In this document: positions 6,517-24,510 of the stretch, in pieces
Layout: every line of letters begins with the position of its first letter
Numbering within the stretch: position 1 is the stretch's first letter
Source of the DNA: an uncultured delta proteobacterium
GTDB taxonomy: Bacteria; Desulfobacterota; Binatia; DP-6
Length of the DNA stretch: 64,000 nucleotides
Assembly: GCA_963815115.1 (NCBI GenBank)
Contig: CAWFFN010000008.1
Location: forward strand, 160,001 to 224,000
Direction: 5' to 3'
Notes under the pieces: model-generated
Told to the model about the DNA's origin: nothing
What the model saw: the letters and a program-made list of their open reading frames with translations, nothing else
The model's database searches: none
Position numbers and translations under genes: made by a program

Positions 6517-6892
6517 CAGCTCCCGGCACGCTCCGGCCCGCCGGGGCAGCTTTGCGGCGCGCACCGGGACCGCCACGACGGCCTCGGGACGGGTCCGGCG
6601 GGCGACGGCGCGTGCACTCTGCGCCGGCCATTTCCCGGGCGATCCGCTGCTCCCCGGGGCCGCCCTCGTGGCCCTCATGGCCGAGCTCGGTGCGACGCTC
6701 GGCGGCCCGCGTGCCCGGCTGGTGGCGGTCGAGCGCAGCGTCTTCCGCCGTCGCGTCGGTCCCCATGCCGGCATCGTCGTCAGTGCCCGCCGGGTGCGGG
6801 CCGTGAAGAGGGGATTCAGCGTCCACGCCACCGTGACGGGCAGGACCGACGTCGCGGCGTGGGCGATCCTGCGCTTCGAGGATGCGCGGTGA
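6512..6892 (+). CDS. Hot-dog 3-hydroxyacyl-ACP dehydratase subunit (FabZ/ApeI-like); start uncertain
   Basis: In-frame GHFPGDPLLPGA motif lies upstream of the called GTG at 6668. No ATG/GTG/TTG precedes the motif in frame. Confidence 0.6.
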   Translation: MSSSRHAPARRGSFAARTGTATTASGRVRRATARALCAGHFPGDPLLPGAALVALMAELGATLGGPRARLVAVERSVFRRRVGPHAGIVVSARRVRAVKRGFSVHATVTGRTDVAAWAILRFEDAR

Positions 6893-7281
6893 CGCTTCCG
6901 GCGCCCGGCGTCATGCTGAGACACCGGCCGCCGGCCCTGCTCCTGGGGACGGTCGACGCCCTCGTGGACCGCACGCTGGCCTGCACGGGGATCGACGCGG
7001 GGCGCTGGCCGTGGCCTCGCCTCCTGGAAGGCACCGCGCAGACGGCCGGACTGCTCGCGGGGCTTCAGCCCGGGGGCCCGGGCCGCGATGCGGTGATCGC
7101 CGAGTACCGCGACGTCTCTCTCGGCGTCGAGCGCCATCGCGGGCGCGTCCGCTTCGAGGCACGCCTCGAGCGCCGGCTGGCGCACTTCTGGCGCTGTCGC
7201 TGCGAGGCCCTCGCGGCCGACGGCCGCGTCCTGCTCGCGTCCCGGGTCACCCTGGCCCGCGCGCCGCAGCGCGAGGCGTGA
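6889..7281 (+). CDS. Hot-dog dehydratase subunit (ApeP/FabZ-like)
   Basis: GTGA overlap with the previous gene. LRHRPPALLL and LLEGTAQTAG match the FabZ-type PHRxPxLL / ExxAQ motifs. Confidence 0.7.
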   Translation: MTLPAPGVMLRHRPPALLLGTVDALVDRTLACTGIDAGRWPWPRLLEGTAQTAGLLAGLQPGGPGRDAVIAEYRDVSLGVERHRGRVRFEARLERRLAHFWRCRCEALAADGRVLLASRVTLARAPQREA

Positions 7282-8456
7282 GCATGGCCTCGTTCGCCGT
7301 CGAGCCGCTCGACCCGCGCGCCTACGAGCGCCTCGCGGCCGCGGGTCTGGCGCCGGATCCCTTCAACCCGGCGCAGCATCGCAGCTGCGAGCTGGTGGAG
7401 CGCTACGCCGTCGACACGGCGCTCGACCTGTGCAGCCGGCTGGGCGTCCTCGAGCTGCTCCACGCGCCGCGCTCCGTCCAGGCGCTGTGCGCGGCGCGCG
7501 GCTTCCTGCCGGCCTTCGAGCGACCGCTGCGCTGGCTGCTCGAGCGTCTCGTGGCGGCGGACGTGCTCGCGCGCGCCGGTACGAGCTACGAGCTCTCCGG
7601 ACCACCCCGGGAGCCGGCGCTCGCGGCGCTGCGCGCGGAGGCGCTGGCGGACGACCCGTCGTATGCGCCCGCCTACGACCTGCTCGACGCCGTGGCGGCG
7701 CTCTACCCCGGCGTCGCCCGGGGCGAGGTGCAGGCCGAGCGCGCGCTGTTCCTCCGCGCCCGTCTCTGGGCGGCCTACTTCGACAACGCGAACGGGTACT
7801 ACGCGCTGAGCAATCGGGTGGCCGCGCGCGCGGCGGCGGTCCGGCTCGGCAGCGGCGGCCAGGTGCTCGAGGTCGGCTCGGGCCTCGGCAGCGCCACGGA
7901 CGCGCTCCTCGCCGAGCTGCGGGCACGCGGCGCGCTCGGGCTGGTGACCGCCTTTCGTGCGACCGAGCCAGCGCTCTTCTTCCGCCGGCGCGCCCAACGG
8001 ACGCTCGAGCAGTCGTGGCCCGACGTCGCGCTCACCTTCGATGCCCTCGACGTCAACCGGCCGTGGGCGGCGCAGGGCGTCGAGCCGGGAACGTATGCGC
8101 TCGTCTGGGGCGTCAACGTGTTCCATCTCGCCCGTCACCTCGACGACGCGCTCCGCGAAGCCCGCGCCGCGCTCGTCCCTGGCGGCTGGCTCGTCGTCGG
8201 CGAGGGCATGCGACCCGGGCCCGGCGTCCCGGTCGGCGCCGAGCTGCCCTTCCAGCTCCTGGACAGCTTTCACGACGTCGTGCTCGATCCCGCCCTGCGA
8301 CCGACGTCGGGGTTCCTCACTGCCGAGCTGTGGCAGGATGCGCTCCGGCGCGCGGGCTTCGACGACGTCGCGCTCTTCCCCGACGTGATCGAGCTGCGCG
8401 AGAGCTATCCCGGATTCGTCGCGGCGGCGGCCTGCGGCCGGCGCCCGCGGCGCTGA
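7278..8456 (+). CDS. Stand-alone SAM-dependent methyltransferase resembling PKS C-methyltransferase domains
   Basis: VLEVGSGLGSAT SAM motif; GVNVFHLA..ALVPGGWLVVGE (cMT NVxH...PGGxLxxxE); LTAELWQDALRRAGF. GTGA-coupled to the dehydratase. Confidence 0.75.
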   Translation: MSMASFAVEPLDPRAYERLAAAGLAPDPFNPAQHRSCELVERYAVDTALDLCSRLGVLELLHAPRSVQALCAARGFLPAFERPLRWLLERLVAADVLARAGTSYELSGPPREPALAALRAEALADDPSYAPAYDLLDAVAALYPGVARGEVQAERALFLRARLWAAYFDNANGYYALSNRVAARAAAVRLGSGGQVLEVGSGLGSATDALLAELRARGALGLVTAFRATEPALFFRRRAQRTLEQSWPDVALTFDALDVNRPWAAQGVEPGTYALVWGVNVFHLARHLDDALREARAALVPGGWLVVGEGMRPGPGVPVGAELPFQLLDSFHDVVLDPALRPTSGFLTAELWQDALRRAGFDDVALFPDVIELRESYPGFVAAAACGRRPRR

Positions 8457-8510
8457 CGCGGAACCTGCCGATTCCTTGAATCCGCCGCGAGAGGTCTGTA
8501 CACGCCCGCC

Positions 8511-9266
8511 GTGCGTGCCTCCCGACACCGCGCCGCTGGATGGCTGGCAGCCGTCGTCGTCCTGCTTGGCTGCGGCTCGACCTCGACGACGAAGCCCGGT
8601 GCCCCGGCGGGCATGGTCTACATCCCGCCTGGCGAGTTTCTCATGGGCAGCGCCGCGGACGATCCGGCGGTCTACGACTGGGAGCGGCCGCACGAGCAGC
8701 CGCAGCACCCCGTCTGGGTCGACGGCTTCTACATCGACGACCACGAGGTCACCAACGCCGACTTCGAGCGCGTCACGCCCACCCACCCGCGCAGCAAGCT
8801 GTCGCCCTGCGACGACTGCCCGGTGACCGACGTGTCGTGGTGGGCGGCGGAGTCGTACTGCGCGAGGCAGACGCCTGCCCGGCGGCTGCCCACCGAGGCC
8901 GAATGGGAGAAGGCAGCGAAGGGCGGCCTCCCGGCGTGGGAGCCCGAACCCTTCGAGGAGTACGTGTGGGACGCCAAGAACACGATCAGCCGGGCGCAGC
9001 CCGTGGCGACCAGGAAGGCGAACCCGTACGGGCTCCACGACATGCTCGGGAACGTGCGCGAGTGGACCGCCGACTGGTACGGGCCGGACTACTACCAGCA
9101 GCGGGAATACACGAACCCGAAGGGACCGCCCGGGGGCATACGTCGGGTGGAGCGCGGAGGAGCGTTCTTCCTGCCCAGGCGCGGCGTGACCACGACGATC
9201 CGCTACAACCATCCACCCCACTTCACGCTGTACTTCCTGGGCTTCCGCTGTGCGATGACGCCGTAG
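8511..9266 (+). CDS. FGE-sulfatase (SUMF1) domain lipoprotein, probably non-catalytic
   Basis: Lipobox LLGC; GEFLMGS, EVTNADF, RLPTEAEWEKAA, NPYGLHDMLGNVREW, RGG, GFRCA. The catalytic Cys pair is missing. Confidence 0.85.
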   Translation: MRASRHRAAGWLAAVVVLLGCGSTSTTKPGAPAGMVYIPPGEFLMGSAADDPAVYDWERPHEQPQHPVWVDGFYIDDHEVTNADFERVTPTHPRSKLSPCDDCPVTDVSWWAAESYCARQTPARRLPTEAEWEKAAKGGLPAWEPEPFEEYVWDAKNTISRAQPVATRKANPYGLHDMLGNVREWTADWYGPDYYQQREYTNPKGPPGGIRRVERGGAFFLPRRGVTTTIRYNHPPHFTLYFLGFRCAMTP

Positions 9267-9273
9267 CGCTCGA

Positions 9274-10083
9274 TCAGGCGGGCGGCCCACCTGCGAGCGC
9301 CCGGACGACGGCGAGCGCGTCGCACAGCGCCCGCACGTCGTGCGTGCGCACGTAGTCGGCTCCCTGCGCGGCCGCCCACAGCTCGGCAGCGAGGGTCGCC
9401 GGCGCGCGCCCGCTGACGTCGCGACCCGTGACCGCGCCGAGGAACGATTTGCGCGAGACCGAGATCCACACCGGCCGGCGGAAGCGCGCCTTCAGCTCTC
9501 CGAGTGCGCGCAAGACCACCAGAGAAGCCTCCGGGTCGCCGCCGAGGAAATAGCCCATGCCGGGGTCGAGGACGACGCGCTCCAGGGACACCCCCGTCGA
9601 CTCGAGCGCGGCCAGCCGCGCGGCAAAGAAGTCCCCGATCCGCTCGACGAGCCCGCGCGGGTCGACGGGGTCACGGGTCGCGGTCGGCGCGCGCTGGACG
9701 GAGTGCATCACCACCAGGCGGCAATGAGCCGGCGCCAGGTCCGGGTAGATGGCGGGGTCGGGAAATCCGCGGATGTCGTTCAGGTAGGCGACGCCGCGCG
9801 CGAGCGCGTAGCGCTGCGTCTCGACCTGCCAGGAATCCACCGACACGGCCACGCCGCGGGGGAGGAGCGCGTCGAGGACGGGCTCGAGCCGACGGATCTC
9901 CTCGGCCGAGCTGACGGGAGCGGCGTCCGGGTTGCTGGCCGCGGGACCGACGTCGACCACCGCGGCCCCGTCCGTGACCAGACGCAGGGCATGGGCGACG
10001 GCCTCCTCGGTCTCGCCGAATCGGCCACCGTCCGAGAACGAGTCCGGGGTGAGGTTGACGATGCCGACGACCTGCGGATGCAT
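9274..10083 (-). CDS. folP: Dihydropteroate synthase of the Sul1/Sul2-like (sulfonamide-insensitive-type) group
   Basis: GIVNLTPDSFSDGG, DVGPAASNPDA, YLNDIRGFPDP, VVMHS, DPGMGYFLG, SVSRKSFL, YVRTHD. Confidence 0.92.
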   Translation of the reverse strand: MHPQVVGIVNLTPDSFSDGGRFGETEEAVAHALRLVTDGAAVVDVGPAASNPDAAPVSSAEEIRRLEPVLDALLPRGVAVSVDSWQVETQRYALARGVAYLNDIRGFPDPAIYPDLAPAHCRLVVMHSVQRAPTATRDPVDPRGLVERIGDFFAARLAALESTGVSLERVVLDPGMGYFLGGDPEASLVVLRALGELKARFRRPVWISVSRKSFLGAVTGRDVSGRAPATLAAELWAAAQGADYVRTHDVRALCDALAVVRALAGGPPA

Positions 10084-10486
10084 GGCCCGCGTCAGCGACG
10101 CGGATCCATCGTGTACCACACGCAGGAGATTCGGCGGAGGCGCCGGCCAGGGTCGCGGGGGAGGGACCGACCAGCGCCTCCGCACGGGGATCTGACTGCC
10201 ATCCATGGGCTGTCAGCGCGGCGGAGGTGCTCGTTCTCGGATTCGCAATGATCGCTTGCCCATCTCTTCTCCGCTCTCCGCGCTGCCACGAGACGGCGTA
10301 CGTGACCACATGCAGCGCGCGTGCCGGACCGCTACGTCGGACCCCATCGCCGCGCGAGTCACGCATCCTCGCGGCTTTTCCCCGTTTGCGGCGCGTGCCC
10401 CGGGGCGGCGGCTCCGCCGGCGGCGGGGCACCCTGCCCTGGCCTGGGGCGGAATGCCGCGCCCCGCACCGCGTCAGACGGCGCGAT

Positions 10487-11482
10487 CTACGCGGGGCGTC
10501 TCGCGGCGACGGACGTCCGGATGGCGCGCGCCAGGAGATAGCCGAGTCCCGGCATGACCCAGAGGAGCTCCCGCAGCCGGACCGCGAGTCCGACCGCGAA
10601 GCCCACGTCGGCGGGGTATCCCAGCATGGAGAACAGCCAGAGCTGGCTCCCCTCGAGCACCCCGATGCCGGCGGGGACCGGCATCGAGTGCACCGCCCCG
10701 GTGGCGAAGATCGCCGCCACCACGGCCAGCGGACCCGAGGGCAACCCGAACGCCGACAGCAGGAGCCAGTACTCCAGCAGGACGAGCAGGTGGCCCGCCA
10801 CGCCGAGCGCGAAGGCCAGTCCCACGCGGCGCGGCTGCGCGGCCAGGGCCACCACGTCGCCCTCCGCGGCCCCGATCGTTCCCATGCGCGCACGGATCGG
10901 CCCGAACCGATCGAGCCCGAAGCCGCTCGCGACCGCGGTCACCACTCCCTCACCCCGTCGCAGGCGCCGGATCATGAACCCGACGCCGACGACCAGCCCG
11001 ACCGCGGCCGCACACAGCGTGAAGGCGGCCCCGCGCAGCGCCGGCACCCCCTGCTGCACCAGGACGCTGCCGAAGACGGCGGCGAAGACCGAGCCGCTTC
11101 CCATGTCGAGGGTGCGGTCGACGGCGACGCTGGCGATCGCCTGCGGCGTCGGGACCCCGTGCTGGGCGGCGAGATAGGCGCGCAGGGGCTCGCCGCCCAT
11201 CCGCCCGCTCGGGATCAGCGTCGACAGGCTGTGCCCCGCGGCCCGGCAGGCCATGAGGGTGCCGAGGGCCACGTGCGACCCGAGCGCCGTCAGCAGCACA
11301 CCCCAGCGCCGGCCGCAGGTCGCGAACTCCGCCGCGATGACGAGCACGAACGCCGCCAGCAGCGGCGCCGACGGCGCCCGCGCGAGCAGTGACAGGGCGG
11401 GCTCACCGTAGCGGTGCAGCGCCCACGCGAGCGCGGCGGTGCCCACCACCAGATTGGTTCCGAGGACGACGGTGGCGCGCAC
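10487..11482 (-). CDS. Lysylphosphatidylglycerol-synthase TM / flippase-like membrane protein (UPF0104)
   Basis: Multiple TM segments; RW..LL, PSGRMGGEPLRAY, VDRTLD, PVPAGIGVLEG, R-ELLW. Confidence 0.8.
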   Translation of the reverse strand: MRATVVLGTNLVVGTAALAWALHRYGEPALSLLARAPSAPLLAAFVLVIAAEFATCGRRWGVLLTALGSHVALGTLMACRAAGHSLSTLIPSGRMGGEPLRAYLAAQHGVPTPQAIASVAVDRTLDMGSGSVFAAVFGSVLVQQGVPALRGAAFTLCAAAVGLVVGVGFMIRRLRRGEGVVTAVASGFGLDRFGPIRARMGTIGAAEGDVVALAAQPRRVGLAFALGVAGHLLVLLEYWLLLSAFGLPSGPLAVVAAIFATGAVHSMPVPAGIGVLEGSQLWLFSMLGYPADVGFAVGLAVRLRELLWVMPGLGYLLARAIRTSVAARRPA

Positions 11483-11495
11483 GCCGGGCGCGGCC

Positions 11496-12667
11496 TCAGG
11501 ACGAGCCGGCGGGCTCGAAGCAGTCGATCGTCGCGCCGGCCTCGAGGTACTCGCCCAGGATCGCCTCGATGGGCCGGTGGTCGAGGACCTCGAACTGGCT
11601 CGCCTCGAGGTCGAAGCGCGCGCCGCTCTCGGTGTACGGCGCGACGCCCGGAGAGCCGGGCGTGAGGACCCCGATCACCGGCACGAGCCGCCGTTGCATG
11701 CGTGCGGGCTCGCGCGTCGAGATCACCACCTTGGCCCGCGGTGCGGCGAGCGCCAGGACGGTGACCAGGCGGCACAGCCGATCGTCGTCGACGCCGGCGG
11801 GATACGGCGTCCCGCTCGCCCGGCGCAGCCGCGGCAAGCTGACGTAGACCTCCATGCCGCGCGCCTCGAGGTGGCGGACGTGCGCGAGCAGGGCGAGCAG
11901 CTCCCAGGCGACGTCGGAGTTGAGGCCGAGGAGCACTCCGGGGTTCGCCACCCACATGCCGGCATCGCAGGCGCGATCGAAGTTCAGGAGCCGCCGCGCG
12001 TAGTCGCTGCGGGGGTTCTCCGGGTCCGTGCCCATGAAGCGTCCGTAGACCTCCGGCTGGTAGGTCTCCTGGAAGGTGCACATGGTGAGGCGCGGCGCGA
12101 CGCGGCCGTCCCCGATCCTGCGCGACCCCGTCGAGGAGGAGGTCGTAGTCGGGGGCGTCGAGCGAGCCGATGTTGACCAGGACGTGGCGGAAGCCGCGCG
12201 CCAGCGCCGCCCGCAGCGCCGCCGCGGCGCGCTCGATCATCGCCTGCCGTCGTGCGCCGTGGCGGTACTCGCCGCTCAGGATGGCCACGGCGCGCAAGCC
12301 ACGACGATGGAGAATGTCGAGCTGGGATTCCACCGTGGTCTCGTCCGCCGACTCCCGGACCAGCTCGGCATTGGAGCGCCGCATGCCGCACATCAGGCAC
12401 GCCGCGTCGCACTCGTTGGTGATGTAGAGCGGAGAGAAGGTCTCGAAGCGGAGGCGATCGTCGCTGCGTCGCGCACGGGCGAGCGCGATCAGCTCGTCGG
12501 TGCCGACGTCGGTCGGCGAGGAACAGCGTCGCGGCCGCCTCGTCATCGAGCGTCGCTCCCGCGCGCGCGAGGTCGGCGATCGCCCTGCCCTCTCCTGCCT
12601 CGGCACGCGCGGTCGCGCGTGCGCGCATCGCGCCGAGCGTCTCGGTCTCGAGGCGGAACCAGGCCAT
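11496..12667 (-). CDS. Radical SAM aromatic amino acid lyase, NosL/NocL-like (ThiH/HydG family); about 2 frameshifts
   Basis: Assembled from three overlapping ORFs: TFSPLYITNECDAACLMC, LSGEY, NIGS, MCTFQETY, NPGVLLGL, SLPRLR, ISTRE, TPGSPGVAPY, SQFEVLDHR. Confidence 0.8.
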
Positions 12668-12682
12668 GGCGGCGGACGTATA

Positions 12683-14078
12683 TCAGCGCGTTCGCGAGCG
12701 CTCCAGGGTGCGGGCGAGACGCCGCCGCCGCGCGGCCGTGCGGAACGTCCGTCCGAGCCAGCGCCAGGTCTCGCCCGCCGTGGGCCGCGGCCACTCGATC
12801 ATCCCCTGCATCAGCGTGAGCACGTGACGCCCGGGCCGCGTCCAGTCGCTCAGCACGATCGGCTTGTAGACGTGCGGACTGCGTCCGAGGAGCTCGACGT
12901 CGAGCAGCTCGTCACGCGGCACGGTCTCGATCTCGACGGGCAGGTCGCCGAGTGCCGCATGCAGCGCCGCCGAGGCCTCGGCGGTGGCGCTGCGGCCATC
13001 CGTCTCGACGCGCACCAGGAGCCGATCCGGCAGCACGACGGCGAGGAAAACGGCGCTGTCGAGCGCGTCCGCCGCCGCGGCCGCGGCGTCCACGAGCAGG
13101 TGCGCGTGCAGGCGCCGGCCCGCCAGCGTCACGACCTCACCGGCCCGGCCGAGGACCACGATGCCCGGCCGCGTGTCGCCGCAGGCGCACGGGGGCAGTC
13201 GCCGTACCACGTCGCCCGTGTCGAGCCGGATGAGCGGGCTGCCCTCGACGCCGAGGGTGGTCACGACGAGTCGGCCCTCGTCGCCGTCAGCCGACCGGAC
13301 TCCCCGTCGCGTCGAGCACCTCGCAGTACGCCAGGGAGGTCTCGAGATGCAGGGTCCCGGCCGGGCAGGAGGTACCGAGCAGCATGGTCTCGGTCGAGCC
13401 GTAGAGCTCGATCACCTCGACGTTCCAGGTCCGGGCGAGGCGCCGCCTGAGGGCCGGCGGAAGCGCGGACCCGCCGAGGAGAAAGGTGTCGAAGGCAAGC
13501 TCCCGGCGCACGTCGAGGCCGCGGCCGCGCGCGATCTCGCCGAGCACGACCGGCTCGAGGGGGAGACCGGCGAGCACCTGCGCGCCGGTGCGGTGTGCCA
13601 GCTCGAGCGCGCGGGGAAAGGGCACGTCCCAGTTGATGTTCCCCGCGGGGATCGACACGCCGCCGCCCTGCTGCGCGACGAGCTGGATCAGGTGCGCGGG
13701 AGCGGCCATGAACGGGAACCGGTTCAGGATGATGCGGCCCGGAGCGAAGACCGTCGGGTGCGCGGCGCGCAGTGCGCGCGCGTCACGCTCGAAGTCCGCG
13801 GTGGTGAGCCAGGTCGAGTTGGTGCCGCCGCTGGTCCCCGACGATTCACCGTAGTGCGCGACCTCGCCGAGCGGCACGGCGCGCGTGCCGTGCGGGCCGA
13901 CCCGTTGCAGATCGGCGCGCGTGGTGATCGGCAGGGCACGCAAGTCCTCCAGGGACCGGAGGCGTACGGTGGCGAGGCGCTCGGCGTAGAGGATGCTGCC
14001 CCGGGCACGATCGATGGTGGCCTCGAGAGCGGTCAGATCGCCCTCGGCCGCCGCCTGCGTGGAGAGGACCTGCGACAC
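12683..14078 (-). CDS. Phenylacetate-CoA-ligase-like (PaaK family) adenylating enzyme; frameshift near 13285
   Basis: LPITTRADL, ESSGTSGG P-loop, ELYGSTET, then after the shift TTL..SPLIRLDTGDVV..CACG..VLGR. Confidence 0.82.
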
Positions 14079-14111
14079 TGCCGCCGCCAGCCTGTGTCGG
14101 ATGCGAGCCGC

Positions 14112-14133
14112 GAGTCAAGGACGAGATTGACTC
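14112..14133. promoter_or_regulatory. Palindrome GAGTCAA-N8-TTGACTC: back-to-back -35 boxes or an operator between divergent genes
   Basis: Perfect 7-bp inverted repeat placing TTGACT on both strands in the intergenic region. Confidence 0.45.
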
Positions 14134-14156
14134 CCGCGGGCGCCGCGACTACAGGG

Positions 14157-14324
14157 CGAGCCGAGACTCCGACTCGGCTCGGGACGCGGAGCGAGAATGA
14201 AGCGCGATGACCCGTGCGCACGTCGTACCCGCGCCGGCTTCGCCGGCCGCGGCATGGCGTGCGCGCGATCCACCGACCGCCACGTCCTCGCCCCGCTTTC
14301 GACCCGAGACGGAGTCTCCCGTCG
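14157..14324 (-). repeat. Three-hairpin REP/MITE-like element, copy 1
   Basis: Terminal hairpins cgagccgagactccgactcggctcg and cgacccgagacggagtctcccgtcg. 14229-14259 is the exact reverse complement of 21347-21377. Confidence 0.75.
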
Positions 14325-16029
14325 CGCCCCCTGGCGTATCGCGTGCGTCCCGGGCGTGCTCGCGCTGCTGCTCGCCGCCCCGAATCTGGCGGCGGCCGGC
14401 TCCTGGGAGGTGACGCGCAAGACCGTCATCGACCCGCTCAACTCGGAGCTCCACCGCCATCTTCCCACCTTCGTCCGCCAGCGCGACCTGGACGGCATCA
14501 TCGGGCTCTACGCGGTGGACACGGGCGGCGGGCTCACCTGGGACGGCGCGCAGCCGGCCTACCCCGAGCGCGAGGAGCGGATGCTGCGCTGGGCCGGTCC
14601 CGCGGGTGCCGAGCGGATCAAGGAGCGCTGGGAGCACCTCCTCGCCCTCCTCCCGACCATCGAGAAGGCGGAGCTGCGCATCGGGCGGGTCGGCTGGCGC
14701 GACGCCGACGAGCGCGGCTACCCCGCGGGCGTCCGTCTCCTGGTGCGCGGGACCTGCGCCGATGGCGCCCGCTGTCAGCTCGACCAGCACATGACGCTGC
14801 GGGTGCGAGCCGAGGGCAACCGCTGGGTGATCACCAACGAGGACGTCACGGCACGCGAGCTGGTCTCCCGCATCGACCCGCGCTTCGCGCTCGTCACCGA
14901 GGCTGCCGGGATCGCGAACGTCCACGCGAGCGGGCCGTCGCCCGCCTTCCAGCTCTTCGGCGGCGCCGACCAGAGCCCGGTGCAGGCCAGCGGCGGCAGC
15001 GCCGTCGCCGACGTCGACGGCGACGGCTGCGAGGACGTCCTCCTCGCCGGATCGCCGGAGGCGGCGCTCTACCACAACAACTGCGACGGCACCTTCACCG
15101 ACGTGACCGCCGCGTCCGGCCTGCCCCGTCCCTATCCCGCCGCCGCCACCGGCGTCGTGTTCTTCGACTACGACGACGACGGCGACCCCGATCTCTTCGT
15201 CGCCGCGGTCGTGGGTGGCGACCGCCTGTTCCGCAACGACGGCGGCGGCCACTTCACGGAGGTCACGGCGGCGGCCGCCATCCCGGCGTCGCGCTGGACG
15301 AGCATGCCCGCCGTGGCCGACTACGACCGTGACGGCTTCCTGGACCTCTACCTGGTGCACATGGGCGATCACGAGAAGACCGTTCCCGAGCCGAGCTACG
15401 CCGCCCGCAACGGCGTCCGGAGCGTGCTGCTGCACAACGAGCGCAACGGCACCTTCCGCGACGTCACCGCACACGCGGGCGTCGGCTTCCACGGCTGGGG
15501 CCTCGCGGGCGCCTGGGGGGACTACGACGGGGATGGCTGGCCCGATCTCTACGTCGCCAACGAGTTCGGCTCGAACGCGCTCTATCGCAACCGCCACGAC
15601 GGCACCTTCGAGGAGGTCGCGGCGCGCGCCGGCGTGACCGACGGCGGCGCGGGCATGAGCGTCGCGTGGGGCGACTACGACGGCGACGGCGACCTCGACC
15701 TCTACGTCTCGAACATGCACGCCAACTCGGGCTGGGCGCTGTTCCATCCCGACTTCCCCCTGCCCATTCCCACCGCCTTCCGCGTGCTCGGGCTCCTCAC
15801 GTCCGAGGTGCGACGGCGAGGCGAGGCGATCACCGATCGGCTGCTGCGCGGCAGCACCCTGTTCCGCAACGACGGCGGCGGTCGCTTCACCGACGTCAGC
15901 GACGCCGCCGGCGTGCGCGACGCGCAATGGGGCTGGTCGGCGGAGTTCCTGGACTACGACAACGACGGCACCCTGGACATCTACGCCACCAACGGGTTCA
16001 TCTCCGGACCGATCCTGGACGATGTGTGA
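14197..16029 (+). CDS. Secreted FG-GAP/VCBS repeat protein (CRTAC1 family), N-terminal part; true start may be downstream (e.g. 14254 or 14356)
   Basis: Repeated DxDxDGxxDL / LFRNxGxGxFxDV units. Ends at an in-frame TGA directly followed by the ASPIC-UnbV ORF. Confidence 0.85.
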   Translation: MKRDDPCARRTRAGFAGRGMACARSTDRHVLAPLSTRDGVSRRAPWRIACVPGVLALLLAAPNLAAAGSWEVTRKTVIDPLNSELHRHLPTFVRQRDLDGIIGLYAVDTGGGLTWDGAQPAYPEREERMLRWAGPAGAERIKERWEHLLALLPTIEKAELRIGRVGWRDADERGYPAGVRLLVRGTCADGARCQLDQHMTLRVRAEGNRWVITNEDVTARELVSRIDPRFALVTEAAGIANVHASGPSPAFQLFGGADQSPVQASGGSAVADVDGDGCEDVLLAGSPEAALYHNNCDGTFTDVTAASGLPRPYPAAATGVVFFDYDDDGDPDLFVAAVVGGDRLFRNDGGGHFTEVTAAAAIPASRWTSMPAVADYDRDGFLDLYLVHMGDHEKTVPEPSYAARNGVRSVLLHNERNGTFRDVTAHAGVGFHGWGLAGAWGDYDGDGWPDLYVANEFGSNALYRNRHDGTFEEVAARAGVTDGGAGMSVAWGDYDGDGDLDLYVSNMHANSGWALFHPDFPLPIPTAFRVLGLLTSEVRRRGEAITDRLLRGSTLFRNDGGGRFTDVSDAAGVRDAQWGWSAEFLDYDNDGTLDIYATNGFISGPILDDV

Positions 16030-16596
16030 ATGGACATGTTCGAGGGCGTCGGTCGACGCTCAGAGCACAGCACCGGGCGGTTCCTCAACATCGGCCAGCA
16101 CAGCCTGAACGGCTACGAGCGCAAGGTGCTCTTCCGCAACAACGGCGACGGCACCTTCACCGACGTGGCCTACGTCAACGCCGCCGACCGCGTCGAGGAC
16201 GGCCGCGGCCTCTCGATCGCCGACCTCGATCGCGACGGCGAGCTCGACCTCGTGCTCCGCAACTACCACCAGCCCGCCCAGGTCCTGCGCAACCAGGGCG
16301 GGCCGGCGCACTGGCTGCAGCTCGTGCTCGTCGGCACGCGCTCGAACCGCGATGCCGTGGGCGCACGGGTTCGGCTCCGCACCGGGCAGCACTGGCAGAC
16401 CCGTGAGGTCCATGCCGGCTCCGCCTACCTGTCCCAGCAGAGCCTGGTGCAGCACTTCGGCCTCGGTGACGCGCGGCGGGCCGACGAGGTGCAGATCGCG
16501 TGGCCGTCCGGCGCGCGCAGCACGCTCGGCCCGCTCGATGGCGATCGCCGGTGGCGGGTCGTCGAGGACGGCGGCGTGGAGCCCGTCGGTCGCTAG
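16030..16596 (+). CDS. ASPIC/UnbV domain (C-terminal part of the CRTAC1-family protein, possibly joined by UGA read-through)
   Basis: SLNGYERKVLFRN, DGRGLSIADLDRDG, HWLQLVLVG..SNRDAVGARV, GSAYLSQ..HFGLG..IAWPSG. Same frame as the upstream ORF. Confidence 0.85.
   Translation: MDMFEGVGRRSEHSTGRFLNIGQHSLNGYERKVLFRNNGDGTFTDVAYVNAADRVEDGRGLSIADLDRDGELDLVLRNYHQPAQVLRNQGGPAHWLQLVLVGTRSNRDAVGARVRLRTGQHWQTREVHAGSAYLSQQSLVQHFGLGDARRADEVQIAWPSGARSTLGPLDGDRRWRVVEDGGVEPVGR
16044..16061 (+). promoter_or_regulatory. Candidate bacterial SECIS hairpin
   Basis: Stem GGGCGTC/GACGCTC with a GGTC loop whose first G lies 22 nt after the in-frame TGA at 16027-16029. Confidence 0.55.
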
Positions 16597-16639
16597 CGGA
16601 TGCACGGCGGCTGCCTCGCGCCGATCGGACGAAATGGCG

Positions 16640-16668
16640 TTGACACCCTCCGGTGCCGCCGCCATCAT
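16640..16668 (+). promoter_or_regulatory. Sigma70-like promoter
   Basis: TTGACA-17 bp-CATCAT, ending 14 nt before the ATG at 16683. Confidence 0.45.
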
Positions 16669-16682
16669 CGCGCGGCCGCACG

Positions 16683-18044
16683 ATGCGCATCCACCTGATC
16701 TCGCCGACGCACTACCTGCCCGACGGGCGCCTCCACAAGACGACGCGCTACTGGACGAGCGGTACCACGCTGCCGTACCTGAAGGCGCTCACGCCGCCGG
16801 GGCACGAGGTCTCGTTCACCGACGAGCTGATGCGCGACCTCGACGTCGAAGGCATCGCGCGCGACGCCGACGTGGTCGGGCTCACCGCCATGGGGCCGCA
16901 GATCCGCCGCGCCTACGACCTGGCGGACGATTTCCGCGCCCGCGGCAAGCGCGTCGTGCTCGGCGGGACCTGGGTGACGCTCACCCCCGAGGAGTCGCTG
17001 CGCCATGCCGACGCGGTGGTCGCCGGCGAGGCCGAGGAGGTCTGGCCGCGGGTGCTCGCCGATCTCGCGGCTGGCCGCACCGGAAGCATCTATCGCGCCG
17101 CCCGCTGGCACGACCTGCGCGGCCTGCCCGCGATCGATCCCTGGACGCTGCCGCTCTTGAAGGCCGACGCCTTCCGGCGCAGCTGGCTCTACCGCATGTA
17201 CTTCTTCTGGCCGGTCTTCTTCTCCCGCGGCTGCCCGCATCCCTGCGAGTACTGCGCGGTGCAGACGTACTACCAGCGCACCTTCCGCACGCGCCCGGTT
17301 GACGAGTTCGTCGCCGACGTGCAGCGGATGACCGCCTTCGGCGCCCGGCGCTTTCTCTTCATGGACGACAATCCCTTCGCGCACCCCGAGGCCGCGAAGG
17401 AGATGCTGCGCGCCCTCGTCCCCCTCCGCATCCAGTGGGTGAGTCAGGCCACCATCAACGTGGCGCGCGACCCCGAGCTGCTCGATCTGGTGGCGCGTTC
17501 CGGCGCGCGCGTGCTCTCCATCGGCTTCGAGAGCCTGTCCGAGGAGAGCCTGGCGTCGGTCTCGAAGCAGTTCAATCGCCCGAGCCGCTTCAAGGACGAT
17601 CTCGCCCGGCTGCGCGCGCGCGGCATCCAGGTGATCGCGCTGCTCATGGTCGGACTGGACGGCGACACGCTCGAGACCTTCCCCGGCATGCTGCGCTGGC
17701 TCGACGACAACAAGATCAGCTTCCTGAAGCTGTTCACGCCGGCGCCCTATCCCGGCACGAAATTCCATGCCGACATGGACGCCGCCGGCCGGCTTCTCGG
17801 CGCCGACTGGGGCCGCTACGACTACGGCAGCCCGAACGTACGCCCGCTGCACATGACCACGGACGAGATGCTCGACGGCTTCCGCTCCGTCTACTCGGGC
17901 TTCTACTCCGTGCGGAGCATGCTGCGGCGATTCGTGCCGCCGCCACGACGCCACCTCCTCGAGTCGCTCGCGATGCTGGTCGCGAACGCCAAGGTGCACG
18001 GCTATCTCCGGCGCAACCCCGAAGCCTGGGGCACCATCTCGTAA
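16683..18044 (+). CDS. Cobalamin-binding-domain radical SAM enzyme (class B-like)
   Basis: B12-binding-like N-terminus (DVVGLT..VVLGG..GEAE), FSRGCPHPCEYC, FMDDN, IGFES, TPAPYPGT. Confidence 0.85.
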   Translation: MRIHLISPTHYLPDGRLHKTTRYWTSGTTLPYLKALTPPGHEVSFTDELMRDLDVEGIARDADVVGLTAMGPQIRRAYDLADDFRARGKRVVLGGTWVTLTPEESLRHADAVVAGEAEEVWPRVLADLAAGRTGSIYRAARWHDLRGLPAIDPWTLPLLKADAFRRSWLYRMYFFWPVFFSRGCPHPCEYCAVQTYYQRTFRTRPVDEFVADVQRMTAFGARRFLFMDDNPFAHPEAAKEMLRALVPLRIQWVSQATINVARDPELLDLVARSGARVLSIGFESLSEESLASVSKQFNRPSRFKDDLARLRARGIQVIALLMVGLDGDTLETFPGMLRWLDDNKISFLKLFTPAPYPGTKFHADMDAAGRLLGADWGRYDYGSPNVRPLHMTTDEMLDGFRSVYSGFYSVRSMLRRFVPPPRRHLLESLAMLVANAKVHGYLRRNPEAWGTIS

Positions 18045-18958
18045 GCGGCCGCGCCCTCCTCGACGGCGGCAGCCGTCTCGCCCCAGACCTCCTCGAACAT
18101 GAGCCACTGCGACGGGCGCTCGCGCACGATCCCCTCGTAGAGCCGGACGGTCGCGACCAGCGCCGCGACGCTGTCGGCCGGCGTGCGCGGATCGAAGCGG
18201 GCCGCGACACGCAGCTCGTAGCGCCGGATGCCGGTGCGCACGGCGAACACCGGCACGATGGGCGCGCGCGCGACCCGCGCCACCGCGAAGGGGCCGAGCT
18301 GGAACCGCGTCGGCCGGCCGCAGAAGTCTACCTCGTGGCTGCCGCGCTTGGGCCCCCACGGCTCGATCTGCATGCCGACGATCTCGTGGCGGCGGAGCGC
18401 GTGCAACGCGGGCAGGCCGGCGAACAGCGAGCGGTCCGAGTAGAGCACGGTGAACCCGTGCCGCGTCCGCATCGAGTGCAGGAAGTCGTGCACCGTGGGG
18501 TTCTGCTCGTGCGCCGTCACCAGGTTGACCGGGCGACCGAGCCGGTTGAGGACGCGCGCCCCGATCTCCCAGGAGCCGAAGTGGCCGGTGAGCACGACCA
18601 GGCCGCGGCCCTCCGCCAGGGCGCTCTCGAAGAGCTCGCGCCCGTCGATGGTGAGCTCGACCGGGCGCGGATGAGGGCCCCATTGCTCCATCCCCTCTGT
18701 CATGGAGCGGGCGAGCTCGGCGAAGACGCGGTAGGCGTCCCAGCGCTCGCGGAGCCAGCTCCGCGGTCCCTGGACCTGGCGCTGGTTGTGGAGGACGCTC
18801 TCGCGCCGCGACCGGGCGACGCCGAAGAGGATGGCCGCGATCGCCGGCGGCGCGCCGCGCTTCCACCACTCCGGGCCATAGACGCAACCCAGTTCCGCGA
18901 AGCGGCGCCACGCCCCGCCGTCGAAGCGCAAGGCGGCTCGAAGGCGCCCCGGGTCCAT
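18002..18958 (-). CDS. Lysophospholipid acyltransferase, LpxL/HtrB-like
   Basis: GRGLVVLTGHFGSWE, FCGRPTRFQLGPFAVA..APIVPVF, ERPSQWLMF. Confidence 0.85.
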   Translation of the reverse strand: MDPGRLRAALRFDGGAWRRFAELGCVYGPEWWKRGAPPAIAAILFGVARSRRESVLHNQRQVQGPRSWLRERWDAYRVFAELARSMTEGMEQWGPHPRPVELTIDGRELFESALAEGRGLVVLTGHFGSWEIGARVLNRLGRPVNLVTAHEQNPTVHDFLHSMRTRHGFTVLYSDRSLFAGLPALHALRRHEIVGMQIEPWGPKRGSHEVDFCGRPTRFQLGPFAVARVARAPIVPVFAVRTGIRRYELRVAARFDPRTPADSVAALVATVRLYEGIVRERPSQWLMFEEVWGETAAAVEEGAAAYEMVPQASGLRRR

Positions 18959-19036
18959 CCGGCTGACTTATCGGAGCGCTGGAGGCGCCTCAAGATACGT
19001 TGTCACGGGGCGCGAAGCGGCGTAGGGCTCTCCCCC

Positions 19037-21385
19037 ATGGACACGATCGCGACGCACTATCGCACCTGCTCCCTGTGCGAGGCCACCTGCGGGCTCGAGA
19101 TCCGGACTCGCGGCCCGGAGATCGTGAGCATCCGGGGCGACGAGGCCGACCCGTTCAGCCGCGGCTACCTGTGCCCCAAGGGGCCGGCGCTGAAGCACCT
19201 GCACGACGATCCCGATCGCCTGCGCGAGCCGATGATCCGTCGCGGCGCCACCTGGGAGCGGGTCGGCTGGGGCGAGGCGTTCGCCGAGATCGACCGCCGG
19301 CTGCCGCCCATCATCCGCACGCACGGGCGCGACGCGGTCGCCGTCTATCTCGGCAACCCGTCGGCGCACCTCCTCTCCGCTCATGCTGTACCCGCGCGCG
19401 CTGCTGCGCGCCTCGGCACGCGCAACCTCTTCTCGGCCAGCACCGTCGACCAGATGCCGAAGCAGGTCGAGCGCGGGCTCATGTTCGGCACGCGCGCTGA
19501 GCGTGCCGGTGCCCGACCTCGACCGCACCGTCGTTCCTGCTCGTCCTCGGCGCCGATCCCGTGGTGTCGAACGGCAGCCTGATGACGGCGCCCGACGTGA
19601 AGGCGCGCCTGCGCGCCATCCGCGCACCGCGGCGGCAAGCTGGTGGTCATCGACCCGCGCCGCTCGCGCACGGCGGAGGAGGCCGACGAGCACCACTTCA
19701 TCCGCCCGGGCACCGATGCGCTGTTCCTCTTCGCCCTCGTCCACACGCTGTTCGCGGAGAACCTCGTCCGGCTCGGCCGCCTCGCACCGCACGTGGCCGG
19801 CGTCGAGGCGGTGGAGCGCGCTGGCGCGCGAGTTCACGCCCGGAGGCCGTCGGCGCCGCCTGCGGCATCCCGGCGGACACCATCCGCCGGCATCGCACGC
19901 GCGCTCGCCGCGCGCCGAGTCGGCCGCGGTCTACGGTCGCGTCGGCACGTGCCAGCAGGAGTTCGGCACCGCTGGCGAGCTGGCTCGTCGACGTGCTGAA
20001 CGTGCTCACCGGCAACCTCGACCGGCCCGGCGGCGCGATGTTCACCAAGGCGGCGGCCGGCGCCAGCAACACGCGCGGCGAGCCCGGACGCGGCAAGGGC
20101 GTCCGCTTCGGACGGCGCGACGAGCCGCGTGCGCGGGCTGCCCGAGGTCTTCGGCGAGCTGCCGGTCGGCTGCCTCGCCGAGGAGATCGAGACGCCGGGC
20201 GAGGGCCAGATCCGGGCGCTCATCACCATCGCCGGCAATCCGGTGCTCAGCACGCCGAACGGCGCGCGGCTGTCGGCCGCGCTCGGCTCGCTCGAGTTCA
20301 TGGTGAGCCTCGACATCTACCTGAACGAGACGACGCGCCACGCGGACGTGATCCTGCCGTCGCTCTCGCCGCTCGAGTCGTCGCACTACGACCTCGGCGC
20401 TCTGGCAGCTCGCCATCCGCAACTACGCAAACTACTCGGCGCCCGTCTTTTCTCCGCCGTCGGGTCGGCCGACCGACTGGGAGACCGTCCTGCGGCTGAC
20501 CGGCATCGTCATGGGTCAGGGACCCGACGCCGACACGGACGCGCTCGACGACTTCGTCGCCCTCCAGCAGGTGGAGAGCGCCGTCGGGGCGGCGGGCTCC
20601 TGCGTGCAGGGACGCGCACCGGCCGAGCTGATGGCCGCGCTCGCCCCGCGACGCGGCCCGGAGCGCCTGCTCGACCTGATGCTGCGCACCGGGCCGTACG
20701 GCGACGCATTCGGCGCGCGGCCCGACGGGCTCTCCCTGCGGCGCTCGAGGCGACCCCGCACGGGATCGACCTGGGCGCGCTCGCGCCGCGCATCCCCGAG
20801 GTCCTGCGCACCCGCTCGGGCATAGATCGAGCTGGCGCCGCGCCGAGATCACCGCCGACGTCCCCCGGCTGCGCTCGCGTCTCACGCGGCCGGAGGGCGG
20901 CATCGACGCTCGTCGGCCGCCGGGACCTGCGCTCCAACAACTCCTGGATGCACAACATCGAGCCGCTCGTGCGCGGCGAGACCGCGCTGCACCCTGTGGG
21001 TGCATCCCGACGACGCCGCGCGCCTCGGGCTCGCCGACGGCGCCGCCGGCGCGCGTGCGCTCGCGCGCCGGGCGCCTCGACGTGCCGGTGGAGGTCACCG
21101 ACGCGATCATGCCCGGCGTGGTGAGCATGCCGCACGGCTGGGGCCACGACGCGCCCGGGATGCGCGTTGCGCGTCGCGTCCGCCAACGCCGGCGTGAACA
21201 GCAATCTGCTGGCCGACGAGCTGGCGATGGATCCGCTGTCCGGCAACGCGGTGCTGAACGGCATCCCCGTAAGCGTGTGTCGAGCCGAGACCTCGTCTCG
21301 GCTCGAAGGGGAAGGCGAGCGTGTGGCGTCCGGTCCCTCAGGCGACCGCCATGCCGCGGCCGGCGAAGCCGGCGCGGCAAAATAG
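19037..21385 (+). CDS. Molybdopterin-dependent oxidoreductase with N-terminal Fe4S4 motif; many frameshifts
   Basis: RTCSLCEATCG..LCPKG, DPDRLREP, YLGNP, GNPVLSTPN, DIYLNETTRHAD, SNNSWMHN, PGVVSMPHGWGH, NGIPV spread across frames. Confidence 0.8.
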
Positions 21386-21479
21386 CGCGCCGCGGCCCGA
21401 CCGGAGCGCTCCGCACCTCTGCCGCGCCGGCGCCGCATGCTCGCCGTCCGTCCCGACCCGAGACGAAGTCTCGGGTCGG
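21281..21479 (+). repeat. Three-hairpin REP/MITE-like element, copy 2 (inverted relative to copy 1)
   Basis: Perfect hairpins cgagccgagac-ctc-gtctcggctcg, gccggc-gaa-gccggc and ccgacccgagac-gaa-gtctcgggtcgg. Lies between convergent genes. Confidence 0.75.
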
Positions 21480-21481
21480 CC

Positions 21482-21895
21482 TTACCGGGGCTGGGCCAGC
21501 GTGAGCCGCCCTTCGGCGCACAGCCGCCCGTCGACCAGGGCGCGGCCGCGCAGCTGCGTCGCGGCCTGGAAATGGCGCAGCACCTCGACCTCGATGCGGA
21601 GGACGTCACCGACCCGCACCGGATCGAGGACCCGGAAGTCGTCGACGGCCGCAAGGTAGCCCGGCTGGGGCGCGTCGTCCTTCAGGGCCGAGAGGAGCGC
21701 GCCCCCACCCTGGGCGAGGGTCTCGAGGAGGAAGGCCGCCGGCAGCGTGCCATCCGCTGCCACGCAGGGATCCGAGGCGGCCACGTGCTTCAGGAAGACG
21801 CCGCAGCGGTCGCCGATCTCGAGCACCCGGTCCAGGAGCAGGAAGGGGGCGGCGTGCGGAAGGCGGGGAAACGGAGTCCGCAGCTCGCTCATCAC
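21482..21895 (-). CDS. 3-hydroxyacyl-ACP dehydratase (FabZ/ApeP-like)
   Basis: LPHAAPFLLLDRV, LLETLAQ, GYLAAVDDFRV..PVRVGD. Confidence 0.85.
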   Translation of the reverse strand: MMSELRTPFPRLPHAAPFLLLDRVLEIGDRCGVFLKHVAASDPCVAADGTLPAAFLLETLAQGGGALLSALKDDAPQPGYLAAVDDFRVLDPVRVGDVLRIEVEVLRHFQAATQLRGRALVDGRLCAEGRLTLAQPR

Positions 21896-23013
21896 GCTGC
21901 CTCTAGCCGGAGCGGCCGACACGCGCCACCCCGGGCGAGACCGTCGACCAGCACCCGGCGGACGGGCATCGCGCGCGCCGCGCCCGTGACCACGTCGAGG
22001 CCGCGGGCCGCCCCAGCTGGCCAGCCGATCGTGGGCGGCACGAGCGCGTGCGACATCGCCAGCGCGGCCGCCGCCACGGCGAGCGCTCCCGCGGCACCGA
22101 AGCTGCCCGTCGTGCCGCGCGGCGCCGTCACCGCCACCGGACGCCCGGCGAACGCGCGCGCGAGCGCCTCGGCCTCCAGCCCGTCCAGCACCACGTCGCC
22201 GTTCGCCGCCGCGACCACGAGGTCGACGTCGGCGGCGAGCGGTGCGAGGCGGCGCGCCAGCTCGCCCGCGTCGGCGGGCCACCCGTGAACCGGGGCCGGG
22301 ACACCGAAGCCTGCGTGCGGCACGAGACGCGCGTAGCGGCGCGCGCCCCGACGAAGTGCGCGCGCCGACGACTCCAGTACGAGCACCGCGGCGCCTTCGC
22401 CCGGAGTCGCGACGGCGCCCGACGCACGGCGCGCCGCGCGCTCGAGGCCCGGAAGGGCCGTGGCGAGCTCGTCCGCCGCGCCCGCCAGGCAGACCTCGGC
22501 CGTACCCTCGCCGACCTGTCGCGCTCCCCACCCGATCGCCGCCTCCCCCGAGGCCTCCTGCTCGGTCACCATCGCCGACGGTCCCGTGATGCCCAGCTCG
22601 ATCGCCAGGTAGCTGAGCGGCGCGTTCATCACCAGGTTCGGGAAGAGGAGCGGGTTGCCGGTGCCGCGGTCGAAGATGCGATCGAGAAAGGTGATCGTCT
22701 CCTCGACGTTACCGAATGCGGAGCCCAGCGCGAGCGCCGTGCGCGGCGGCGCCAGTGCCTCGGGCTCGAGACCGGCGTCGGCCAGGGCGAGCCGTGCGGC
22801 CGCCAGGGCCAGCAGCGACGTCCGATCGATCCGGCGTCCCTGCGCCGAACGAACCCAGCGGCGCGCCTCGAGGCCCTCCACCCGCGCCGGCGCGGCGGAT
22901 TCTCCGGGTGCGCGAGCGCCGCGGCCTGCGACGACCGCCTCCCAGAACGGCTCCACGCCGACACCGAGCGCGCTCACCACGCCGATGCCGGTCACGGCCA
23001 CGTCACCGATCAC
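21892..23013 (-). CDS. Non-catalytic ketosynthase-like chain-length factor
   Basis: KS fold (VAVTGIGVVSALG, NPLLFPNLVMNAP, GEGAAVLVLE). Catalytic Cys replaced (TEQEASG); His motifs absent. Confidence 0.8.
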   Translation of the reverse strand: MIGDVAVTGIGVVSALGVGVEPFWEAVVAGRGARAPGESAAPARVEGLEARRWVRSAQGRRIDRTSLLALAAARLALADAGLEPEALAPPRTALALGSAFGNVEETITFLDRIFDRGTGNPLLFPNLVMNAPLSYLAIELGITGPSAMVTEQEASGEAAIGWGARQVGEGTAEVCLAGAADELATALPGLERAARRASGAVATPGEGAAVLVLESSARALRRGARRYARLVPHAGFGVPAPVHGWPADAGELARRLAPLAADVDLVVAAANGDVVLDGLEAEALARAFAGRPVAVTAPRGTTGSFGAAGALAVAAAALAMSHALVPPTIGWPAGAARGLDVVTGAARAMPVRRVLVDGLARGGACRPLRLEAA

Positions 23014-24230: not shown

Positions 24231-24238
24231 ACCGACTC

Positions 24239-24499: not shown

Positions 24500-24510
24500 C
24501 GCGCGCCTCT

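Follow-up and report, generated by a model that had tools for sequence, protein, structure and literature searches.

Bacterial selenocysteine (Sec) insertion depends on an in-frame UGA codon and on a Sec insertion sequence (SECIS) hairpin, which is bound by SelB, the protein that brings Sec-tRNA(Sec) with GTP to the UGA. In Escherichia coli fdhF-type genes, the SECIS is a GC-rich hairpin that lies within the open reading frame (ORF), directly 3′ of the UGA, and carries a GGUC loop; bacterial elements in general follow a spacing rule of 16-37 nucleotides (nt). The CRTAC1/ASPIC-UnbV family, which includes murine CRTAC1 (Protein Data Bank (PDB) entry 9etn) and proteins named “enediyne biosynthesis protein E4”, is built from an FG-GAP propeller followed by an UnbV_ASPIC beta-sandwich, and its described members are not selenoproteins. 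Planctomycete ASPIC/UnbV FG-GAP proteins appear as selenoprotein candidates in the S9 Table of Kim et al. (2016, PLoS One, PMC4807772), two rows of which give a closest match with G at the site and enter the SECIS as “yes” in one case and “no” in the other. The locus described here lies in a 64,000-nt stretch of DNA from an uncultured delta proteobacterium (contig CAWFFN010000008.1), hereafter referred to as the window, which has a G+C content of 72.2%. Positions 14197-16596 of the window very probably form one gene, in which the TGA at 16027-16029 is a Sec codon served by a bacterial SECIS hairpin.

Direct reading of the sequence gives an ORF of 610 amino acids (14197..16029) that ends with this TGA, in the context GPILDDV-TGA-MDMFEG, and a second ORF of 188 amino acids (16030..16596) that continues in the same frame. 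Read through, the two ORFs form one selenoprotein gene (14197..16596, + strand), which has 799 codons before its TAG stop and encodes a signal peptide, an N-terminal alpha+beta domain, an FG-GAP propeller, and an UnbV_ASPIC domain, with the UGA (16027..16029, + strand) at residue 611. Here and below, positions refer to the window and identities are given against its read-through protein. The start of the gene is uncertain, with ATG 14197 and ATG 14254 as candidates; alignments of orthologues begin at approximately residue 42-56. In Pfam, the first ORF matches FG-GAP_3 (PF13517, E 1.7e-51) and FG-GAP (PF01839, E 1.9e-18), and the second matches UnbV_ASPIC (PF07593, E 5.6e-20) together with one further FG-GAP_3 repeat. 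Since the second ORF starts with an FG-GAP_3 repeat, the TGA lies inside the repeat array and not between domains. The initial annotation of this DNA had described same-frame ORFs split by a lone TGA and followed by a hairpin with its loop G 22 nt on, and both the coordinates and the sequence confirm it. Its placement of the TGA between the FG-GAP region and the ASPIC-UnbV domain stands as far as the separation of two same-frame ORFs is concerned, but the break itself falls within the repeats.

The TGA is conserved in all close relatives of the gene that were examined. Searched with the read-through protein, 41 related genomes yield nine full-length orthologues and one cut at a contig end (61-78% identity), as well as two distant relatives (38-42% identity). 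Each of these 12 loci has exactly one TGA within the match, and it occupies the same alignment column in 12/12. When 301 genomes of the class are sampled, TGA is found at the site in 28/28 site-spanning matches with at least 46% identity, which come from 25 genomes in 8 taxonomic families. Four more matches at approximately 42% identity also have the TGA, and stop-free matches reach at most 51% identity and mostly cover the UnbV part alone. Among the orthologues, protein identity is 61-86% and persists in frame on both sides of the TGA. All 32 distinct orthologue and paralogue sequences have TGA at the residue-611 column. The gene's own terminator is TGA in 19 of these 32 cases, and a changed genetic code is therefore ruled out. 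A phylum-wide search of 401 genomes (E ≤ 1e-40), in which the window's taxonomic family had just one further representative, matched the window's own genome alone. Among the relatives listed by a search of genome contigs, which was dominated by the generic pattern NNGDGTFT, identity is at most 41%. Second gene copies occur in some genomes (L116 at G020:C244, L144 at G008:C408, and L145 at G432:C7). The first of these has an additional TAG near residue 500, and the last, which may be decaying, has a SECIS stem mismatch (GGGGUC) and an upstream stop.

Metagenome contigs extend this picture. They were scanned with the pattern D-D-[VIL]-x-[MLI]-[DE]-M-F-x-G-V-G-R-R, back-translated such that the Sec codon (NNN) and the synonymous sites (N) were left free. 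There are at least 120 matches, and TGA is present in 120/120 of the matches listed, which represent 77 distinct 48-mers; TGC, TGT, or any other sense codon at the Sec position occurs in none of the 120 listed, although the pattern demands the flanking motif and a Cys form with another motif would escape it. The initial annotation had envisaged either Cys or a conserved TGA in this column, and the TGA is what the 28 genome matches and the 120 metagenome matches listed contain, with no TAA, TAG, or other residue and with no Cys form. With at least 120 contigs, the gene appears to be common in soil metagenomes. A 274-nt contig from a soil run is identical to 15846-16119 but possibly derives from the source sample and hence is not independent.

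The SECIS upper stem (16044..16061, + strand) is the hairpin GGGCGUC-GGUC-GACGCUC, which starts 15 nt past the UGA. It comprises 7 base pairs (bp) (16044-16050 with 16055-16061) and a GGUC loop (16051-16054), the first G of which is 22 nt beyond the A of the UGA, and it is supported by folding, covariation, and codon freezing. When the 44 nt that follow the UGA are folded, this hairpin makes up the core of the minimum-free-energy structure (−16.5 kcal/mol, z −2.75), whose stability is matched by 3 of 200 shuffles. A lower stem (16037-16041 with 16063-16067; 16037..16067, + strand) is possible on the basis of the single-sequence fold alone. A search of 15900-16200 against Rfam in E-value mode gave chance-level matches only (E ≥ 3).

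The relatives fall into three groups that differ in the motif around the Sec codon (U) and in the sequence of the stem. G1 consists of 25 sequences with 60-100% identity, the motif DD[VIL]-U-[MLI][DE]MF.GVGRR, the stem GGCGUC/G(A/G)CGCC, and the first loop nt at position 25 from the U of the UGA. G1b (L134 and L135, 47-54% identity) is one codon longer, with the stem AACGUC/GGCGUU or GACGU and the first loop nt at position 28; two G-C pairs of the stem are replaced by A-U. G2 (L011, L012, and L141-L143, 35-42% identity) has the motif VD[TI]-U-[ST][DQ][WY]WR.V, stems such as GCGUGC/GUGCGC, CGCAC/GUGCG, and CGCGU/ACGCG, and the first loop nt at position 21. The GGUC tetraloop of G2 sits in another codon phase and codes for different residues, and its retention across codon phases is therefore not explicable by conservation at the protein level. 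The genes of these groups resemble the E. coli fdhF-type genes in their in-frame UGA, their GC-rich in-ORF hairpin directly 3′ of it, and their GGUC loop starting 21-28 nt from the U of the UGA, and the window's genome also has the Sec machinery. They are unlike them in their product, an exported beta-propeller that is unrelated to the molybdopterin enzyme.

Covariation was assessed in an alignment of 32 sequences (23 distinct), designated A3, which was anchored on the GGUC loop; two MAFFT alignments (A1 and A2) misregistered the distant hairpins. Standard pairs fill 90.7% of the stem cells of A3 versus 67.0% after shuffling, and 0 of 500 shuffles reach the observed value. All 7 stem pairs vary on both sides, with a covariation score of 0.602 versus 0.171, and sliding the 3′ arm by 1-3 columns lowers pairing to 24-57%. 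Among the 77 distinct metagenome sequences listed, all 7 pairs are retained in 57 and 6 of the 7 in the remaining 20.

Synonymous sites tell the same story as the stem pairs. Across 19 G1 orthologues, the amino acid is invariant and its codons are degenerate in 152 columns, of which just 16 use a single codon. Only five of the single-codon columns hold four- or six-fold degenerate residues, and four of the five are hairpin codons, namely G617 (GGC), V618 (GTC), G619 (GGT), and R621 (CGC). The R620 codon is either CGA or CGG in these orthologues, which preserves a U-A or U-G pair, and three or four different codons appear in adjacent Gly columns. The loop GGTC, and with it GTC and GGT, is found in 77/77 of the distinct metagenome sequences listed, though GTN and GGN were permitted by the scan. 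The frozen codon of Gly619 is also a rare one. In seven genes of the window, GGT accounts for 11% of Gly codons, CGA for 7% of Arg codons, and TCA for 3% of Ser codons; the hairpin holds GGT and CGA, and TCA comes next. The rare codons that the initial annotation had pointed out here are thus real, and the structural constraint it had read from them agrees with the freezing of four of the five codons.

The genome of the window encodes selA (548.9 bits), selB (351.7 bits), selD (372.5 bits), and tRNA-Sec (65.8 bits), all scoring over curated cut-offs. The three protein genes lie side by side in a likely operon (G000:C12:419444-423705), and tRNA-Sec is located on the same contig approximately 170 kb away (G000:C12:592977-593068). 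The same genome has a formate dehydrogenase alpha gene (L159, G000:C9:1744540-1747661) with one Sec TGA at contig position 1744998. After this TGA comes the hairpin GGUGCCC-GGUCU-GGGCGCC, whose loop starts at nt 22; the loop is of the same type and lies at a near-equal distance. Of the 25 genomes that carry the gene, 23 have selA, and the remaining two (G009 and G529) have tRNA-Sec over the cut-off, with 81.4 and 70.2 bits, respectively. In taxonomic families with a patchy distribution of selA (f10, 4/19; f116, 14/24; f7, 13/20; f11, 12/17), 8 of the 9 carriers are selA-positive. The conserved TGA, the covarying hairpin, and the machinery, each of which the initial annotation had left to be looked for, all favor its reading of the codon as Sec.

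On this reading, the GC-rich stem of 6-7 bp with its GGUC loop would recruit SelB, which would deliver Sec-tRNA(Sec) at the UGA for insertion of Sec at residue 611. The ribosome would then go on to translate the final blades of the propeller and the UnbV_ASPIC domain. The predicted product is a pre-protein of approximately 800 residues with a signal peptide, which would leave the cytoplasm.

Other explanations of the TGA have been considered. Translation might stop at the TGA and restart at the adjacent ATG by translational coupling, such that two genes yield separate FG-GAP and small UnbV proteins, which assemble later. This arrangement, which is deemed highly improbable, draws on the ATG that directly follows the TGA in the window and on public protein sets, in which the N-terminal (P0033, P0072, P0085, and P0120) and C-terminal (P0250) pieces are listed separately. 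However, ATG is the next codon in only 17 of the 32 distinct genome sequences, the other 15 having CTG (6), CTC (1), ATT (2), ATA (1), AGC (2), AGT (2), and ACG (1), with AGC, AGT, and ACG found in G2. The 77 distinct metagenome sequences listed likewise include 31 with a non-ATG codon (ATG 46, CTG 19, CTC 5, ATT 4, ATC 2, ATA 1). The break moreover falls inside a propeller blade, so that the second piece would open with a partial FG-GAP repeat, and a restart leaves unexplained the frozen synonymous sites, the covarying stem, and the fact that the codon is always TGA and never TAA or TAG.

Alternatively, the UGA could be read through with an ordinary residue (Trp, Cys, Arg, or Gly, by a near-cognate tRNA or local recoding), the hairpin serving to promote read-through or pausing. 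Downstream structure can stimulate stop-codon read-through in general, which speaks for this option, but it is deemed highly improbable: the loop type and spacing of the hairpin match the SECIS of the genome's own formate dehydrogenase, the Sec machinery of the genome is complete, and a sense codon would be expected in some metagenome matches but is found in 0 of the 120 listed. That the gene is broken or misassembled, as the shifted frames of a nearby AMP-binding-like gene (near 13276-13299) and a molybdopterin oxidoreductase (~19034-21500), themselves faults of the genome or of its assembly, might suggest, has next to no probability given the same TGA in every orthologue (25 genomes, 8 families) and in the 120 metagenome contigs listed, together with the in-frame identity of 61-86% on either side of it; the recurrence in orthologues also excludes the base-call error that the initial annotation had allowed for.

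The Sec-containing product is predicted to be an exported protein of four parts. The N-termini of orthologues are predicted signal peptides, and the protein is therefore probably exported from the cytoplasm. In the window, the signal peptide region (…WRIACVPGVLALLLAAPNLAAAG / SWEV; 14329..14397, + strand) was read from the translations, as were AxA-type sites in L003 and L007 and, in their place, the lipobox-like Cys sequences LVGC, ASGC, LPGC, LSGC, VGGC, and VAGC among L118, L119, L123, L124, L126, L134, and L135. An AlphaFold2 (AF2) model built from 86 aligned sequences has a predicted local distance difference test (pLDDT) score of 90.6 and a predicted template modeling (pTM) score of 0.90. 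From the N- to the C-terminus, it shows a disordered stretch, a hydrophobic helix that begins at residue 50, the alpha+beta domain, the FG-GAP propeller, and the UnbV beta-sandwich. The alpha+beta domain (residues ~68-240; 14398..14916, + strand) is specific to the window's subgroup and well folded in the model; it has no Pfam match even at E ≤ 5, and a protein atlas gives unnamed clusters only. The FG-GAP beta-propeller (14980..16296, + strand), identified by Pfam, the model, and the alignment, has DxDxDG loops and invariant Asp and Gly columns. The UnbV_ASPIC domain (16354..16554, + strand; Pfam) lies 3′ of the Sec codon and corresponds to residues 109-175 of the second ORF. No NCBIfam family is matched by the read-through protein.

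The closest solved fold is that of murine CRTAC1 (9etn_A; Foldseek E 1.4e-29, template modeling (TM) score 0.73 on the target, 22% identity), and a profile of the family matches 9etn alone in the PDB (E 3.4e-45). In the AF2 model, Sec611 is placed within a flexible insertion of approximately 35 residues between strands of what would be the sixth blade, as counted from the DSSP string, and it begins a short helix (611-614). Unlike the shared propeller and beta-sandwich, this Sec-bearing insertion lies outside the 9etn alignment. Residue 611 is the sole Cys-like column that is invariant in 21 proteins of the Sec clade. W491, M507, and D609 are invariant in G1/G1b (21/21) as well as in G2 (5/5) and are minority residues in 65 other homologues. 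Cys278 and Cys296 were considered as partners of the Sec and rejected, as they are present in just 10 and 12 of the 21 Sec-clade proteins, respectively.

No Cys-form orthologue was found in a word-indexed search of 5.8 billion proteins or in an exhaustive search of 1.84 billion representatives. In the former, every match above 80% identity is an N-terminal fragment that ends at the TGA (P0033, P0072, P0085, and P0120 are such N-terminal parts), and stop-free matches reach at most 45%. The sole close match in the latter is P0250, a protein of 201 amino acids that starts just past the site, and stop-free proteins there reach at most 49% identity. “CRTAC1 family protein” and “enediyne biosynthesis protein E4” are among the names given to relatives in their source records.

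The most distant Sec-containing relatives are those of G2, in which the TGA aligns with residue 611 and is followed by the GGUC-loop hairpin. In two of them (L012 and L143), the C-terminal part is an AhpC/TSA-Redoxin domain that contains WCKAC or WCAAC; this domain was detected by Pfam in L143 (AhpC-TSA, E 7.5e-8) and read from the translation in L012. These thioredoxin-fused forms share with the window protein a Sec at the homologous propeller position, a comparison made within this class. They differ in that the window subgroup has no thioredoxin or tetratricopeptide repeat (TPR) part, the window protein ending after UnbV_ASPIC without a thioredoxin CxxC domain. The traits of its own that set the window subgroup apart are the N-terminal alpha+beta domain, the DD[VIL]-U-[MLI][DE]MF.GVGRR motif, the other SECIS codon phase, and a neighboring gene for a B12-binding radical S-adenosylmethionine (SAM) protein. 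In L142 (G562:C101) and L011 (G037:C3), a C-terminal extension of approximately 300 residues without a Pfam match replaces the thioredoxin domain.

A FastTree phylogeny recovers each of G1, G1b, and G2 as a monophyletic group (100% support). The first two cluster (support 97) together with three stop-free proteins, in which the Sec column holds F, R, or E, and G2 is found elsewhere on a long branch, apart from them; the deep nodes are unresolved. The Sec site may have had one origin or several.

Several observations weigh against the assignment of Sec611 or against a redox role for it. Both Sec incorporation and the full-length product are deduced from sequence comparison. The register used for covariation was chosen by the author on the GGUC loop, and the shuffle control overstates significance because the sequences of A3 are related. 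The pair of Sec and Cys forms that usually accompanies a selenoprotein is missing, since the databases searched contain no Cys-form orthologue. The Sec column of stop-free relatives (at most 49% identity) holds E, D, L, F, R, S, gaps, and others, with Cys in 1/120. selA and selB were not detected in the carriers G009 (99% complete, 280 contigs) and G529 (87% complete, 450 contigs). The co-occurrence of the gene with selA is weak evidence because selA is common in the class (247/301 genomes, a tally that includes the unpublished G594 and G599). The loop that carries the Sec is poorly modeled, with pLDDT below 50 for residues 616-620. Finally, neither CxxU nor UxxC occurs as a motif in the 21 Sec-clade proteins, nor is a partner Cys conserved among them, and the argument for redox chemistry draws on distant fused relatives only.

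The function of the protein can be approached only with decreasing firmness. Less securely than the recoding itself, Sec611 is suggested to be the reactive center of an exported redox or metal-dependent enzyme, because it is the sole invariant Cys-like residue, has no Cys form, and is found in distant Sec-containing sisters fused to a thioredoxin-type CxxC domain. Least securely of all, the protein might share a pathway with its neighbors, which include the B12 radical SAM protein and lipid- or polyketide-type enzymes. A bolder and rather unlikely idea is that the propeller is an exported enzyme with an outright requirement for selenium, in which Sec611 would act as the nucleophile or a metal ligand of a new active site on the CRTAC1/UnbV scaffold and would work on the product of the neighboring pathway. 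If so, the selenium-requiring chemistry would explain why billions of database proteins include no Cys form, and the whole UnbV/“enediyne E4”/CRTAC1 family would gain its first biochemical function. The presence of Sec in a CRTAC1/UnbV scaffold would, in any case, strongly hint at a reactive site in these widespread proteins, to which a vertebrate cartilage protein and the enediyne “E4” proteins are related.

The recoding mechanism is ordinary, and the family is barely documented. As far as the searches reach, the window subgroup, which lacks a Cys form and has a distinct architecture, is new to the literature. The initial annotation had called the protein a new selenoprotein, which can be upheld for this subgroup within that reach but not for FG-GAP/UnbV selenoproteins in general, given the planctomycete candidates listed in 2016 (PMC4807772). 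Judged by table entry and not by alignment, those candidates resemble the window gene in that a lone TGA divides their FG-GAP and UnbV_ASPIC parts, which the annotation treats as two genes. The family is not among the 119 families in Table 1 of a 2026 selenoprotein review, nor is it in the main texts of a 2022 review, the deep-Sep paper, or the BSepDB paper (for BSepDB, this concerns the main text and not the family list in Table S2). Full-text literature searches combining selenoprotein or selenocysteine with FG-GAP, ASPIC, or CRTAC1 returned unrelated papers only. According to the reviews, nearly all selenoproteins have Cys homologues. Search methods based on Cys/Sec pairs cannot detect the window family because no Cys form was found, and analyses of soil bacteria see two truncated proteins because gene callers cut the gene at the TGA.

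The gene directly downstream encodes a B12-binding radical SAM protein (16653..18044, + strand; Pfam Radical_SAM and B12-binding). A homologue of it is found within approximately 6 kb in 8 of 13 loci from five families, upstream or downstream and usually on the same strand. As the window's genome has 14 B12 radical SAM genes in 6.9 Mb, the chance of one lying that near is approximately 3%, a figure that is not a formal test, the loci being related. The linkage is not universal, because three loci of family f2 have unrelated neighbors (enoyl-CoA hydratase, carboxyltransferase, and Usp).

Within the window's taxonomic family, the gene belongs to a conserved set. In the window this set spans 6837-25998, and it is shared by G013 and in part by G009 and G003. 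It comprises a methyltransferase, an LPG_synthase_TM protein, an unassigned ORF, an AMP-binding protein, the selenoprotein, the B12 radical SAM protein, an LpxL-type acyltransferase, two ketosynthase-type genes, and a short-chain dehydrogenase, a content that suggests a pathway for a lipid or a type II polyketide. The “PKS cluster” of the initial annotation is thus appropriate in the sense of a type II fatty acid synthase (FAS)- or polyketide synthase (PKS)-like set, with its two ketosynthase-type genes, short-chain dehydrogenase, acyltransferases, AMP-binding gene, and B12 radical SAM gene, but it is not a modular PKS.

The AMP-binding-like gene (12752..14093, − strand) is divergent from the selenoprotein gene and conserved upstream of it in the taxonomic family. 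Its frame changes near 13276-13299, and its G013 counterpart is a single ORF of 631 amino acids. The start of the selenoprotein gene is overlapped by a + strand ORF (12984..14210) that is only a shadow of the AMP-binding-like gene. The molybdopterin oxidoreductase gene at 19034-21500 (+ strand; Molybdop_Fe4S4 and Molybdopterin) has several frame breaks, with Arg/Ala-rich out-of-frame stretches in alternation with others that look real, and is either a pseudogene or the result of a run of assembly indels; the orthologous G013 cluster has no molybdopterin oxidoreductase gene. A Pterin_bind protein (E 4.2e-66) is encoded at 9274-10206 (− strand), where it adjoins the LPG_synthase_TM gene.

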